Positions 36,022-47,840 of a stretch of DNA of 64,000 bases are shown piece after piece. Under the pieces are notes generated by a model. The model did not search any database. It was not told where the DNA came from and saw only the letters and a program-made list of their open reading frames with translations. Both the position numbers and the translations under genes were made by a program. The DNA is from Eledone cirrhosa. Taxonomy: Eukaryota. Location: positions 253,952,001 through 254,016,000 of the forward strand of contig OZ024742.1 in the NCBI GenBank assembly GCA_964016885.1, given 5' to 3'. The first letter of the stretch is position 1, and the number at the start of each line of letters is the position of its first letter.

Positions 36022-36175
36022 TTCATTATTTCTGAAGACGGCATATATATGAGTTGGTATGTATATTTAATTTTGATAGTTTGTATAATTTTGTATAATT
36101 TTGTACATAGATCTGTTAAATATACATGCCAATTCTAACACATATATATCCCAGAAACGATCGTTAAATAATGAA
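36022..36175 (+). ncRNA. type I hammerhead with 115-nt helix II domain in PLE pLTR (inverted copy ~30742-30889, minus)
   Basis: TTCATTATTT-CTGAAGA-cGG..CCa-GAAA-CGATCG-TT-AAATAATGAA; 10-bp helix I; long paired helix II. Confidence 0.85.
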
Positions 36176-36511
36176 CTTTTTTTGTTTAATATAAGGAACT
36201 GTTTCATTGTTTTATTCATTATTTTTTAAATATTTTATCTTGACTCTGTATTCCGTTTATCTTTCACCGAAAATGATTTTTCATTGCATCTCTTCTTTCC
36301 ATGATATCCGGATTACAATGAGTTCTTCATACGGATTGGACACTACCGTAAACTCTTGGTAGATTTATCTACATATATATATATATATATATATATATAT
36401 ATATATATATATATATTTATTAAAAAAAATATATATATATATATATATATATATATATATATATATATATATATATATATATATATATATATATATATAT
36501 ATATATATATA

Positions 36512-37325
36512 TAGTAAATCAGGAAAGAAGAGTGACACGGTTTGCTATACAAAAAAGGTTTTTAATCTCATTGCTGACAATTGTTTCTCTGAACTGGTAG
36601 GTATAGAGATCGCTATCCGCTTATTTTCGTGTTACTCGATCGCCAATACAAAATTATAACCAGCCAGTTCATTGGTCAGATAAAAAACCGACTATTACGG
36701 CCACCTGACCTACATTCTTTAAAAACACCAGCTTATCTTTACACTTGAAATAATACACCCTACGACAGTCTGTACATGTCAATTTTATACATCTGCCTCA
36801 TGTCAGCTAGTTTTACGCGCTAAAATCATAGATATACTATACTTCCCACCTAGATTGATGTTGTGATTATTTCAAATAATTTATTGCTAGCATTGTTGAT
36901 ATTGTTGTTATTGTTCTAACTGAATGCCATTACTACTACATATAGTAGCCTGTATATTCTTTTCATGCCTGTATATTCTCTTCATTCTCGCAAGCTCCGA
37001 TGAACTGACTGGTTATAATTTTGTATTGGCGATCGAGTAACGCGAAAATAAGCGGATAGCGATCTCTAGACCTACCAGTTCAGAGAAACAATTGTCAGCA
37101 ATGAGATTAAAAACCTTTTTTGTATAGCAAACCGTGTCACTCTTCTTTCCTGATTTACTATTACTCCAAGTGTTTACAACATAGGAATTACAGCGTACTC
37201 GCAGCATCACTATGGAAACGCCTTGTTGAGCCAAACTTAGCCAAGCGTTGATATCATCCACTACTCGGAGTACCATAACTGGACTACACCTAAGTGGACT
37301 GCATATAACTATTATTTGTTACCCC
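36512..37325. mobile_element. fold-back non-coding element in (TA)n (~160-bp inverted arms)
   Basis: 36512-36672 inverts 37000-37160. Confidence 0.85.
36994..37099 (+). ncRNA. hammerhead motif variant (U4>C)
   Basis: GCT-CCGATGA-aCTGACTGG..CCAGtTCAGa-GAAA-CAATTG-TC-AGC. Confidence 0.65.
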
Positions 37326-37691
37326 GTATATATATATATATATATATATATATATATATATATATATATATATATATATATATATATTTATATATATATA
37401 TATATATATATATTTATATATATATATATATATATATATTTATATATATATATATTTATATATATATATATATATGTGTGTGTGTGTGTGTATATATATA
37501 TTTATGTATATATATGTATATATATATGTGTATATATATATATATATATATATATATATATATATATTTATATATATATATATATTATATATTTATGTAT
37601 ATATATATAATATATATATGTATATATATATATATATATATATATATATATATATATATATATATATATATATATATATATATATATATAT

Positions 37692-43803: not shown

Positions 43804-46800
43804 TGTTGTGGTTGCGTTTGCTGTGTGGGTTGCTCGACTTTACAGGAGGTAAATATACAGTATTTTCCGTTGTGTTGTAATATAAATATTACACACAGTA
43901 GATTATCAGCTCACGTAGAGTTTGCTCGACGGTTCCAGTTGTAGTTCCAAAAGTAATCCGGAGAAAAATAGAAAGATTTGAATGGATACAGTTTAGTTGA
44001 AAGGAATTTATTGACACGTGTTTCTATAACAGTTACATAACCTAAAACAGCTGCTATCTACAAACTTTTAGTTATGCAGACATTCAATATTTCAATGTTA
44101 TTATTTACTGTCATTTCATCAGAATAATATTACTGAGGACCTATTTAGTTTTTATAGAGAATATTAGGAGGGAGGGGTGAAGTTGTTAGAAGAATAGTTG
44201 AAGGAGTGGTTTTTCGATAGCAGTGAGAATTCTTGGTGGCAGTGAGTAATTAGATTCCCATCTGTTGTTTTGACATTTTTTATAGAATATATTATTGGTT
44301 ATTTTTCTAAATCTATAGAAGGATTAGAGATAGTAAAGATATGCGTGGTTGGTTTTGTGTTTGCACTTAATTAACATTCAGACTTAAATTTTTCTTTCAA
44401 GTGTACGTATCCTTTCACCCACGCATTCACAAACAAATATATTTGCACACCTCTACAAAATACATATACTCACAATTCACATATTCATACTTACATATAT
44501 ATACACATGCATACACATATATATACACACATGTATTCATGTACATACATACGCGCTCATGTGTATACATTTTCATACTCAACTTATCTTTATATACACA
44601 CGTATAGACACACACATATATACATACATACTCTAGTCCATGTGTACACACATACACATACATACACATCCATATACACATATATACATACATATATATA
44701 CATATATACATATACATACATATATATACATATATATATATATATATATATATATATATATATATATATATATATATAAGCACTTTAATACATGAATACA
44801 CTTACATCTAACTATACACATCAAACATATATATATATTTACTTATTTATATACATTTTCACATATATATACATACTTATGGACGTTTTTAGACACATTC
44901 ATTATCGCATATTTGTACCTATTCTCATCAGCATATCTTTCCATTATTAGTGTGGTAATTTAAGGTTATTAATATATGTTGAGAAGAGATTGTTTTTATA
45001 TTTTTCTAACTAGATTAAGGTTTATATAGTTGGGGGATGTCCCTCTTTTATGTAATATTCGGCTTGTAGTGGGAAAAAAGGGTTTTAGTTCTGTGACGGC
45101 AGAATAATGTTCGTTCAATTCTGTTATTCAGCAGTTTCTTCTTGTGTGTGATTATGTAATAAATCTCAAGATTACACAATTTGCAGAAATTTTGGCTCCT
45201 GGAAAAGCTTTGGGTTTTAGCTAATTTTTCCCATTTTAGGGTAAACTTTTGATCGCTATCCCTGAGCGTCCAAGTTTTTCTGCTAAAGTTGTTACATTTC
45301 TTTGGCTCTGGTGTTTTATTGAGTAAGAATGCCTATACAATCGAGATTTAAACGATGTTGCCGTTGATCCCACGTAATACCACTCGTTGCCTCCGGATTT
45401 AATGGTACACTTATAAATAATATTTTTTTCCAGGCAGTTATTGCCGAGGGGGCAGTTGTCAGGATAGGTGCAGTTACAGTTGTGTACGTTGGGTTTTCTC
45501 TGGAGTAGTATTGCGGACGAACTTAGGTGTGGTTTATTTATGTTCTGTAGTGTATTGTTTACTGTTTTTTTTGTGTTCTTTGTACTTAAGTTCTTAGTGC
45601 TTTCGTTTAACCTTCTAGTATTGATCTTTTTTATGTGTTGTTCAAGGTTTAACGCTGTAGAGTATGACAGTCTTATAGTGGTAGGGTTTAGGATTTTATG
45701 GTATTTGTGTGATGTGGGAAAATGTCTTTTAATTATTTTAAAGAAGAGTACTGGTAAATTTGTACTACTCGAACTATTGTATTCGGAGTTATACCATAAG
45801 TACTCTTTGCATCGCTTTCTATTAGTTTTGTTTGTTGGTTTACTGGTGTGCATACTATGGTAGTAAGTGTGGTTTGGTGTTGTGTTATTATATCTACCTA
45901 TGTGGGATTTATTTTGGGTGTTTTGATTGTTCCCATCTATGTACTCTATTTTGTTGAGGTAGCCTGCTTTACTAAGGGCGTTATCGTAGTACTCGGCGTG
46001 TTCCTTAAATACTTGTATGTTAGAAGATAGACCCAAGATTCTAAGGAAAATATTTTTAGGGATAGATTTAATTATAGAGATGGGGTGGTTAGACCCAACA
46101 TTTACGTATTTGAGATTTTCATTCAATTTATGAAACGGTTGAATAACAGAATTGAACGAACATTATTCTGCCGTCACAGAACTAAAACCCTTTTTTCCCA
46201 CTACAAGCCGAATATTACATAAAAGAGGGACATCCCCCAACTATATAAACCTTAATCTAGTTAGAAAAATATAAAAACAATCTCTTCTCAACCACACCTA
46301 AGTTCGTCCGCAATACTACTCCAGAGAAAACCCAACGTACACAACTGTAACTGCACCTATCCTGACAACTGCCCCCTCGGCAATAACTGCCTGGAAAAAA
46401 ATATTATTTATAAGTGTACCATTAAATCCGGAGGCAACGAGTGGTATTACGTGGGATCAACGGCAACATCGTTTAAATCTCGATTGTATAGGCATTCTTA
46501 CTCAATAAAACACCAGAGCCAAAGAAATGTAACAACTTTAGCAGAAAAACTTGGACGCTCAGGGATAGCGATCAAAAGTTTACCCTAAAATGGGAAAAAT
46601 TAGCTAAAACCCAAAGCTTTTCCAGGAGCCAAAATTTCTGCAAATTGTGTAATCTTGAGATTTATTACATAATCACACACAAGAAGAAACTGCTGAATAA
46701 CAGAATTGAACGAACATTATTCTGCCGTCACAGAACTAAAACCCTTTTTTCCCACTACAAGCCGAATATTACATAAAAGAGGGACATCCCCCAACTATAT

Positions 46801-47720
46801 AAACCTTAATCTAGTTAGAAAAATATAAAAACAATCTCTTCTCAACATATATTAATAACCTTAAATTACCACACTAATAATGGAAAGATATGCTGATGAG
46901 AATAGGTACAAATATGCGATAATGAATGTGTCTAAAAACGTCCATAAGTATGTATATATATGTGAAAATGTATATAAATAAGTAAATATATATATATGTT
47001 TGATGTGTATAGTTAGATGTAAGTGTATTCATGTATTAAAGTGCTTATATATATATATATATATATATATATATATATATATATATATATATATATATAT
47101 ATATATATATATATATATGTATATATATGTATGTATATGTATATATGTATATATATGTATGTATATATGTGTATATGGATGTGTATGTATGTGTATGTGT
47201 GTACACATGGACTAGAGTATGTATGTATATATGTGTGTGTCTATACGTGTGTATATAAAGATAAGTTGAGTATGAAAATGTATACACATGAGCGCGTATG
47301 TATGTACATGAATACATGTGTGTATATATATGTGTATGCATGTGTATATATATGTAAGTATGAATATGTGAATTGTGAGTATATGTATTTTGTAGAGGTG
47401 TGCAAATATATTTGTTTGTGAATGCGTGGGTGAAAGGATACGTACACTTGAAAGAAAAATTTAAGTCTGAATGTTAATTAAGTGCAAACACAAAACCAAC
47501 CACGCATATCTTTACTATCTCTAATCCTTCTATAGATTTAGAAAAATAACCAATAATATATTCTATAAAAAATGTCAAAACAACAGATGGGAATCTAATT
47601 ACTCACTGCCACCAAGAATTCTCACTGCTATCGAAAAACCACCCCTTCAACTATTCTTCTAACAACTTCACCCCTCCCTCCTAATATTCTCTATAAAAAC
47701 TAAATAGGTCCTCAGTAATA

Positions 47721-47840
47721 TTATTCTGATGAAATGACAGTAAATAATAACATTGAAATATTGAATGTCTGCATAACTAAAAGTTTGTAGATAGCAGCTG
47801 TTTTAGGTTATGTAACTGTTATAGAAACACGTGTCAATAA
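47721..47840 (+). ncRNA. type I hammerhead with 91-nt helix II domain (minus copies 40433-40552 and 44008-44127)
   Basis: TTATT-CTGATGA-aATGACAGT..ACTGTTATa-GAAA-CACGTG-TC-AATAA. Confidence 0.82.

Follow-up and report, generated by a model that had tools for sequence, protein, structure and literature searches.

Four hammerhead motifs in a 64,000-nt stretch of Eledone cirrhosa DNA (the window) carry very long helix II domains and have C·A or A·A opposed at positions 10.1 and 11.1. These motifs are probably type I hammerheads of the terminal repeats of young, high-copy Hydra-clade Penelope-like elements (PLEs) and of an ORF-less derivative, kept by compensatory change and likely to cut RNA slowly, as dimers or with protein. 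This reading draws on their intact GA and GAAA catalytic nucleotides, their place in both pseudo-LTRs, the identity of young copies and covariation in helix II.

Hammerhead motifs in the window

All four motifs are type I hammerheads by core and three-helix layout, and their places, helix II lengths and oppositions agree with those given in a preliminary description of this DNA. The motif at 36022..36175 (+ strand) has a 10-bp helix I, the core CUGAAGA (36032-36038) and a 115-nt helix II domain (36039-36153) beginning with C·A, then G-C, G-C and CxC. On its 3' side, GAAA (36154-36157) leads into an 8-nt palindromic helix III with a predicted cut after U36165, and an inverted copy (30742..30889, - strand; inverted repeat I14) is located on the 5' side of the same insertion. 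Family B, at 38352..38433 (+), has its core at 38357-38363, a 51-nt helix II (38364-38414) with C·A followed by G-C, and a 10-nt palindromic helix III with the cut predicted after U38428. The motif at 47721..47840 (+), which lies within an inverted truncated copy, has a 5-bp helix I, its core at 47726-47732, a 91-nt helix II (47733-47823) with A·A followed by A-U, and a predicted cut after C47835. A shorter fold of this motif through an inner GAAA near 47753 (4-bp helix II, A-U closure) was rejected because it leaves helix I unpaired, as judged by eye. The same hammerhead occurs on the - strand in the upstream pseudo-LTR (44008..44127), where the predicted cut precedes the start of the ORF by 209 nt, and in the downstream pseudo-LTR (40433..40552), giving a cut-to-cut distance of 3,575 nt.

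The fourth motif, at 36994..37099 (+), has the core CCGAUGA (36997-37003), which contains the U4C change, an 81-nt helix II (37004-37084) with A·A followed by C-G, only 3 bp of proximal helix I and a predicted cut after C37096. Its U4C core was present in 30/30 pattern matches (loci L061-L090), all picked for their likeness to the 36994 query. Since U4C is a described, slower natural variant, this motif is less canonical, and its standing as one that works like a hammerhead is untouched. A partial inverted copy without the 5' strand of helix I was read from the sequence at 36567..36690 (-). A further hammerhead-like motif at 50618..50744 (+) has a branched 95-nt helix II closed by A-U, again as first described; by eye, pairing of its helix I requires cleavage at the second GUC (50738-50740), and the motif was left unscored by our hammerhead scanner. 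This family is older, with other matches at 95-97% and U·U or G·U in sister families.

The core C3 U4 G5 A6 N7 G8 A9 ... G12 A13 A14 A15.1 ... U16.1 H17 is complete in 36022, family B, 47721 and 50618, and three helices surround it, with helix I open and helix III predicted only between two copies. A paired 10.1-11.1, usually G-C, is absent from the C·A and A·A motifs, but pairing here is not strictly defining, since accepted, active variants with U·U exist. In all four motifs helix III is perfectly palindromic, with self-duplex energies of -6.4 to -10.3 kcal/mol and no hairpin. Minimum free energy folds of the monomers do not yield the hammerhead, and that of 36022 has its two core strands paired together; this inactive pairing was entertained as a function of A11.1 and then discarded, being weak or missing in the other families. 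Folding z-scores for the helix II domain were -6.2 (36022), -5.3 (47721), -4.1 (family B), -2.8 (36994) and -2.7 (50618), with weak folding of the distal part in some relatives (-1.6 to +0.5).

Parent elements, young copies and family B

The 36022, 36994 and 47721 motifs sit in pseudo-LTRs of PLEs that are assignable to the Hydra clade by protein motifs and element layout. The 47721 parent ORF (41481..43803, -), with one frame break near 43500, encodes RWK, DKT in place of DKG, the CxCx5C linker and, at the C-terminus, a GIY-YIG domain. The 36022 parent ORF (31215..32876, +) is a 5'-truncated Hydra-clade reverse transcriptase (RT) with GIY-YIG; it lies 3.0-3.2 kb upstream of the motif in three loci, and a longer copy (L137:2820-4934) contains both DKT and CxCx5C. 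In an older 36022 subfamily the ORF is 1.0-1.6 kb upstream, also in three loci. The 36994 ORF is missing from the window and was found about 0.8 kb upstream of the motif in locus L139. DKT is present in the 36022 and 36994 parents as well, the fragments of which were examined without N-termini, and the ORF alignment shows the CxCx5C linker and C-terminal GIY-YIG, with the third C substituted in the L139 copy. Pseudo-LTRs, tandem and inverted copies and (TA)n targets complete the Hydra-clade layout. No Pfam family was matched by the four PLE ORFs, and two metagenome scans found no relative; uncertain ORF links (L298, L098, L275, L228, L230) were given no weight.

The families had initially been called unrelated, which is wrong: the RTs of the parents are 55-67% identical. 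The 47721 and 36994 parents are sister lineages (67% identical RT core; clade support 99/97 and 100/100), and the 36022 parent, with 55% identical RT, belongs to the same Hydra sub-lineage. The parents share an RT sub-lineage marked by LICPSKSD and GSxDSA, whereas the Hydra-clade rows of Craig et al. 2021 (PMC8557442), in the part available, have LINPxKxE and GxYDxA.

The mismatch is kept in young genomic copies of the 36022 and 47721 families, a point on which the preliminary description had made its proposal depend. Among the genome matches listed, 37/40 for 36022 (window copy included) are identical over 191 nt and 40/41 for 47721 over 161 nt. Such identity reflects recent amplification, not selection; only the covariation between subfamilies speaks for selection. 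Across the 36022 lineage, pair 10.2/11.2 varies among G-C, G·U and A-U and pair 10.5 among A-U, G·U, G-C and U-A, with C·A and CxC kept throughout, including in relative L275, the core of which has U3-A8. Apical helix II motifs are also conserved across diverged 36022 relatives. In sequencing-run contigs no variant at or above 5% was seen at 36039 or 36153, and a C>T change is common at 36152.

Family B is a repeat of about 530 nt without an ORF. In addition to the copy described above, the window contains an inverted copy (37772..37853, -; core 37848), a diverged copy in which helix II carries a compensatory change (9439..9520, -; core 9515) and a subfamily on mixed strands at 53895..54780, comprising two tandem 531-nt units on the - strand (cores 54504 and 53973; direct repeat D17) and an inverted copy on the + strand (core 54696), with no ORF seen upstream of these units. 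This is the one tandem pair, the remaining units being solo or inverted. In a helix II alignment of seven distinct copies, 98.6% of cells are paired, five pairs have changed on both sides and C·A is invariant; covariation was 0.361 versus 0.159 when shuffled (0/500) and at most 0.10 when slid. A genome search with family B returned zero matches, probably since very common words were skipped. The family may be derived from a hidden autonomous parent element.

Helix II across the genome and alternative readings

A scan of 1.28 Mb of unselected genome gave 104 descriptor matches compared with 1, 0 and 1 in three dinucleotide shuffles (500-nt tiles). G-C closes helix II in only 12/104. Removal of eight weak or duplication-artefact families reduced the all-loci set from 72 to 64 families, 44 of which have matches in unselected DNA. 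Among these 44, an A11.1 mismatch was found in 6/17 long (at least 45 nt) versus 3/27 short families (p = 0.07), and at 60 nt or more in 5/8 versus 4/36 (p = 0.005), three of those five being one lineage. The all-loci set, which includes families picked for the trait, gave 9/26 long versus 4/38 short (p = 0.027), and hand-grouped lineages 7/14 versus 4/22 (p = 0.067). All ten family-defining C·A matches in unselected DNA are long (51-115 nt), and a long helix with A11.1 occurs in at least three separate groups (the 36022 clade, the 47721/36994 clade and family B). The traits also occur apart: A·A was found on helices of 13, 21 and 24 nt and G·A on one of 14 nt, while U·U, G·U, A-U and G-C all occur on long ones. 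Homologous families switch between G-C, U·U and A·A (L093, L096, L134), between A·A and U·U (36994, L167, L155) and among A-U, U·U and G·U (kin of 50618). Leontis-Westhof tables reportedly place A·A, C·A, A·G and A·C in one isosteric sheared-pair set.

The motifs had been proposed to form one shared structural subclass, and this was not borne out by the 44-family counts, in which the traits are enriched together yet separable. Long helix and mismatch are best explained as separate traits that co-occur partly by descent, and because each also occurs apart, the known ribozyme family is widened and no new subclass is needed. A co-adapted subclass, with contact or stacking energy from the long helix making the A11.1 mismatch workable, draws on the enrichment, the uniformly long C·A matches and the recurrence in at least three groups; the mismatches on short helices, the ordinary pairs on long ones, the concentration of the longest A11.1 families in one lineage and a published C·A on a 21-nt domain (PLE-X1_cBra) make it unlikely. 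It is possible, if doubtful, that the C·A families show a register shift, the C being the usual unpaired PLE base after A9, the next purine the true 10.1 metal ligand and the A a second extra base before G12, hence no C·A pair. The PLE consensus CUGANGAH-G...C-GAAA (PMC4209133) fits this, C is unable to bind the pocket metal (PMC6961537), and a purine follows C in 4/4 C·A families (versus 3/8 A·A and 3/14 U·U families), in all consensus states found for the 36022 lineage and in the Chara motif already in print. Against it, the four C·A families are two lineages, C and A are both invariant, more than would be required of two looped-out bases, and the A·A followed by C-G in 36994 is left unexplained. 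The shift is a matter of geometry alone and can coexist with the explanation preferred here.

The loss of G10.1, U4C in 36994, the conserved apical motifs and the PLE PAc, which still inserts in vitro with a mutated hammerhead and shows no RNA-seq ends at its cut site (PMC11167929), would all suit motifs that are catalytically dead or nearly so, their hairpin kept for RT/EN binding, initiation of reverse transcription, promoter function or RNA stability. This is unlikely, as G5, A6, A9, G12-A14, A15.1-U16.1 and H17 persist across about 60 families (H17 is never G, though the scan required non-G), C3-G8 covaries to U3-A8 with C·A kept in L275, and both helix I and the palindrome of helix III have been retained. 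The AT-rich, repeat-dense window, the relaxed descriptor and the absence of Rfam hits could point to chance matches in AT-rich repeats or to decayed copies there. That reading is refuted by young-copy identity, the shuffle control and family B covariation, and the fixed pseudo-LTR position likewise speaks against it.

Under the preferred reading of slowly cutting PLE hammerheads, self-cleavage likely still occurs. Two copies would pair through the palindromic helix III, and the element RNA would be cut slowly, as dimers or with protein help, freeing a unit-length RNA (3,575 nt for the 47721 element) that starts 209 nt before the ORF. Its long domain is probably a PLE helix II of the ordinary 6-9 bp with an extra hairpin or branch in the loop. 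Position 10.1/11.1 is probably relaxed across the PLE hammerheads of this genome, with C·A fixed in two lineages and A·A one of several interchangeable states in others. PLE hammerheads are known to be weak and dimer-dependent, often without loop 1-loop 2 contact (PMC4209133), and one is protein-assisted (PMC11167929). The N7 of G10.1 is a metal ligand, a place that C cannot take (PMC6961537). In earlier work U·U was the mispair best tolerated and U4C lowers activity considerably (PMC3088659), so the C·A, A·A and U4C plus A·A motifs may be very slow. A bolder proposal, which we consider rather improbable, is that the lineage-fixed C·A hammerheads have a redesigned catalytic metal pocket, active without the usual G10.1, with the 50-115-nt helix II compensating or serving as a platform for the RT-endonuclease. 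If true, tens of thousands of copies would be missed by Rfam and the published descriptor. Homologous scaffolds provide a natural series at 10.1/11.1 (G-C, A-U, G·U, U·U, A·A, A·G, A·C and C·A), making the tolerance of this position directly testable.

Detection and comparison with known hammerheads

The Rfam search proposed earlier found no hammerhead: there were zero matches at gathering, none at E<=10 among the best 150 of 181 rows, and none at E<=10 in 35900-38600 and 47600-50850. Rfam also misses a G-C-closed 37-nt motif at 49214. The expectation that descriptors with a short, G-C-closed helix II would overlook these motifs held in part; the published helix II block misses all five, but G-C closure is not the cause. 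The descriptor of Cervera and de la Pena 2014 (PMC4209133) tolerates an additional N10 and N11 and limits loop 2 to 3-10 nt, and it is this limit that hides the motifs. In the unselected genome, 67/104 hammerheads are outside the block, mostly by length, and 75 matches in 880 kb at arbitrary coordinates extrapolate to roughly 250,000 motifs genome-wide. Naiads were reported without hammerheads after descriptor searches that used 7-17-nt or 35-50-nt spacers, and claims of such PLE clades lacking hammerheads deserve a new test in which a long helix II is permitted.

In the parts of PMC3088659 and PMC7229834 available, no activity was reported for a C·A or A·A hammerhead, and neither helices of 80-115 nt nor lineage-fixed C·A/A·A turned up in a literature covered incompletely; Lunse et al. 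2017 may describe such variants. In those same parts, Perreault et al. 2011 (PMC3088659) and the axolotl HHR_Amex2 (PMC7229834) document a helix II base mispair and U4C in active natural ribozymes, and the core variants of the former comprise U10.1·U11.1, U4C and U3-A8, with only U·U described as a mispair. Non-LTR retrozymes (PMC7229834; bioRxiv 10.64898/2026.07.22.740005) are non-coding tandem units with one type I hammerhead each, which family B may resemble; they are 150-450 bp as reported, whereas the family B unit is 531 nt.

Minimal PLE hammerheads (PMC4209133) share the pLTR location, the palindromic helix III, a helix II of 6-8 bp, the optional extra N10 and N11 and U3-A8 variants. 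Their consensus includes a single extra base on the 5' side and strong conservation of G10.1-C11.1, in contrast to the rarity of G-C here. In the available part of PMC8557442, the Chlamys-type plant elements carry the two traits in different elements: PLE-X1_cBra (Chara; File S2) has C·A then G-C, as here, and PLE-X1_sMoe (spike moss) a helix II domain of 54 nt, 35 nt of which form the loop, the opposition in both being listed there without comment. The published Hydra-clade hammerheads (File S2) are of the same clade, with type I topology and near-palindromic helix III. In the rows available, a 10.1/11.1 mismatch is common among them, with U·U in 14/26 by our count; C·A has been in print once. 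Helix II in those rows is at most 26 nt and none has A at 11.1, whereas the motifs described here have 51-115 nt and C·A or A·A.

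Long helix II hammerheads and their conservation

The window is part of a 3.0-Gb animal genome and is rich in Penelope-like elements (PLEs) and (TA)n. Four hammerhead motifs with long helix II domains and an A-bearing mismatch at 10.1/11.1, where G-C is usual, were present with the lengths and oppositions given in a preliminary description, as determined by direct sequence inspection and descriptor scans. The motif at 36022 (+) has a 10-bp helix I, a CUGAAGA core, and a 115-nt helix II domain with C at its 5′ end and A at its 3′ end (C·A), then GAAA and an 8-nt palindrome, with a predicted cut 3′ of U36165. 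The others are 36994 (+; 81 nt, A·A, core CCGAUGA, or U4C), the ORF-less repeat family B (51 nt, C·A; six copies within the window), and 47721 (+; 91 nt, A·A; three copies). The motif at 50618 (+) has a 95-nt domain with A-U. Folding z-scores of the helix II domains were -6.2 (36022), -2.8 (36994), -4.1 (family B), -5.3 (47721), and -2.7 (50618). Judged from sequence, these are real, selected hammerhead motifs.

The mismatch is present in young copies, as 37 of 40 matches listed for 36022 (across 191 nt) and 40 of 41 for 47721 (across 161 nt) were fully identical. Full-length identity was found in 10 of 42 matches listed for 36994 (remainder 99-100%), and 50618 was itself the only identical one among those listed (39 others at 95-97%). 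Only the best 40 candidates were scored, so these figures do not give copy numbers and are biased.

Covariation between subfamilies shows selection. Among seven distinct copies of family B, 98.6% of cells were paired, five pairs were altered on both sides, and the C·A was invariant; the covariation score was 0.361 versus 0.159 when shuffled (0/500 shuffles) and at most 0.10 when slid, and two of five covariation measures failed to beat shuffles (106/500 and 138/500). In the 36022 lineage the pair beneath C·A varies among G-C, G·U, and A-U, with switches at deeper pairs as well. Both C·A and the C/C mismatch in helix II (CxC) were retained in 48/48 scored copies of the 36022 family, in 27/29 of the related L147 family, and in the single L275 relative, whose core is U3-A8.

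Contigs from sequencing runs listed no variant of at least 5% at 36039 or 36153. At 47721 they carried A>T at 11.1 as a minor variant (4-8% of depth), which would yield A-U, and likewise a minor U4C. In run X5, one low-depth contig at 36043-36150 has the long helix II shortened by 106 nt, which would be either a naturally short version or an artefact of hairpin skipping. Contigs of the same run at 47640-47900 showed 14 T>C versus 2 A>G places, partly clustered; A-to-I editing in inverted copies, on their antisense arm, could produce this excess, though diverged copies would give the same pattern.

Host elements and the separability of two traits

The 47721 hammerhead occupies both pseudo-LTRs of its element, with the ORF beginning 209 nt past the upstream predicted cut and a predicted cut-to-cut distance of 3,575 nt; copies terminate in (TA)n, 44 or ~156 nt past the cut. 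The 36022 motif lies downstream of ORF 31215-32876, by 3.0-3.2 kb in three loci and by 1.0-1.6 kb in an older subfamily (three loci). In the young element the 3′ UTR (32876-36000) is ~3.1 kb and largely TA/TG microsatellite, compared with 1.0-1.6 kb in the older subfamily. The parent element of 36994 was found at two other loci (L139 and L080). No ORF was found for family B, one subfamily of which is arranged as 531-nt tandem units.

The four families had been described as unrelated, which the reverse transcriptases of the three ORF-bearing parents contradict. RT cores were 67% identical between 47721 and 36994, and 55% between 36022 and each. In midpoint-rooted trees built from short fragments of EN (30 rows) and RT (17 rows), 47721, 36994, and families with U·U on 79-82 nt cluster (100/100, 99/97), with the 36022 lineage separate. 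Both lineages fall inside a larger RT clade (99/99) that includes families with short helices (20 nt with G·U, 30-31 nt with A-U). These families are therefore related, though the long helix was gained or lost more than once.

The proposal of one shared subclass was not supported. An unselected sample of 1.28 Mb (400 kb flanking the window and 880 kb at round coordinates) gave 104 matches to our own descriptor, 4 of them from families afterwards discarded as doubtful, versus 1, 0, and 1 in shuffled sequence. Their 10.1/11.1 states were U·U 27, A-U 26, G-C 12, C·A 10, A·G 8, G·U 7, A·A 6, U-A 4, and C-G, U·G, A·C, and G·A 1 each; 31 had domains of at least 45 nt and 14 of at least 80 nt. At the family level in this sample, an A11.1 mismatch occurred in 6/17 long versus 3/27 short families (p = 0.07), and with a 60-nt cut-off in 5/8 versus 4/36 (p = 0.005), three of the five being one lineage. 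Against a single subclass, A·A was found also on 13-, 21-, and 24-nt domains, and 10.1/11.1 differs among families judged homologous by eye from common flanks and interior: at 47-52 nt it is G-C, U·U, or A·A; at 60-62 nt, A·A, G·U, or G-C; at 79-82 nt, A·A or U·U; and at 92-96 nt, A-U, U·U, or G·U. The long helix and the A11.1 mismatch are thus co-enriched yet separable traits, and the claim of one subclass is too strong. C·A is the only state occurring as a family trait solely on long helices in this genome sample.

Further hammerheads occur in the window and at other loci. In the Hydra-type family to which ORF 21543-22670 belongs, a hammerhead-like motif follows ~0.94 kb downstream (23601-23660, +); its core is CAGAAGA (U4A), and its helix II measures 13 nt and has U·U. 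U4A cores also occur in other families. A family at 49958 (-) and 59556 (-) combines a U3-A8 core and U·U with a helix II of 42-45 nt; its helix III, a near-palindrome of 22 nt, could perhaps fold as a monomer. A 37-nt G-C-closed hammerhead at 49207-49287 (+) has a stable hairpin as helix III and is missed by Rfam. U4C cores occur in 7/64 families; one of these families (L092:8695 -, L111:9377 -, L182:4759 +), whose helix II is 20 nt long with A·G, has its helix III palindrome and proximal helix I in common with 36994. A distinct PLE ORF with a CX4CxxC-type linker (55292-56341, +) is followed by two inverted 31-nt A-U-closed hammerheads (57200-57406), a link that is unsure because its L132 copy has a different hammerhead ~0.75-0.8 kb downstream. 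Two 26-nt G-C-closed hammerheads from a frequent family form an inverted pair at 4648-5271. At 10720-15592 (-) lies a non-LTR retrotransposon that is broken and matches RVT_1 and zf-RVT.

Escape from annotation and a proposed mechanism

Rfam gave no hammerhead at gathering and none at E ≤ 10 in the motif intervals, and also fails on the G-C-closed motif at 49214. The min-HHR descriptor (PMC4209133 Fig. S7) permits an extra N10 and N11, a stem II of 3-7 bp, and a loop of 3-10 nt. Its helix II block accommodates 37 of the 104 unselected matches, including U·U, A·G, and A·A ones, and 57 of the 67 misses have domains >26 nt; lifting the loop limit brings the fit to 90/104. The main cause is therefore length, not G-C closure; the earlier point about annotation is valid for the former. 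In this case 36022 fails even without the loop limit, because merely two pairs stand before its CxC.

The anatomy, position, and covariation of the motifs are evident at the sequence level, and we consider it likely that cleavage is slow and dimer- or protein-assisted, with helix length and mismatch as separable traits. The helix III self-duplex was computed at -6.4 to -10.3 kcal/mol, with no hairpin in the monomer; helix III would form between two copies, and cleavage would release RNA of unit length. PLE hammerheads are described as cleaving weakly, as dimers (PMC4209133), and one requires its element's protein (PMC11167929). G12 acts as base and G8 as acid, with a sheared A9·G12 above 10.1-11.1 (PMC11300833), and a divalent ion is bound by G10.1 N7 and the A9 phosphate, an edge along which C is unable to bind (PMC6961537). 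With A at 10.1, an N7 is still present. With C, there would be either a non-canonical pair beneath A9·G12 or an arrangement in which C takes the place of the extra base of PLE hammerheads and the next purine acts as 10.1. The base following C is a purine in 4/4 C·A families, and that following 10.1 is a purine in 3/8 A·A and 3/14 U·U families. A sheared geometry may be common to A·A, C·A, A·G, and A·C.

Comparison with known hammerheads

Arbitrary coordinates (880 kb; L143-L190, L266-L305) gave 75 hammerhead matches, which extrapolates to ~250,000 genome-wide; a published axolotl count is 126,247 (PMC7229834). The literature covered on PLE hammerheads reports no 80-115-nt helix II and no lineage-fixed C·A or A·A, a weak negative given poor coverage of subscription papers, with Lunse et al. 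2017 outside it. Lineages with fixed C·A merit experimental study. Both U·U and U4C have been described in natural hammerheads (PMC3088659; PMC7229834), and AGAAA appears in one unassigned row of Fig. S3 of PMC4209133. In File S2 of PMC8557442, U·U occurs in 14/26 Hydra rows, with domains of at most 26 nt and A11.1 in none of these rows. In the same file, PLE-X1_sMoe has a 54-nt domain, and PLE-X1_cBra has C·A then G-C, as in the C·A motifs here, but on a 21-nt domain.
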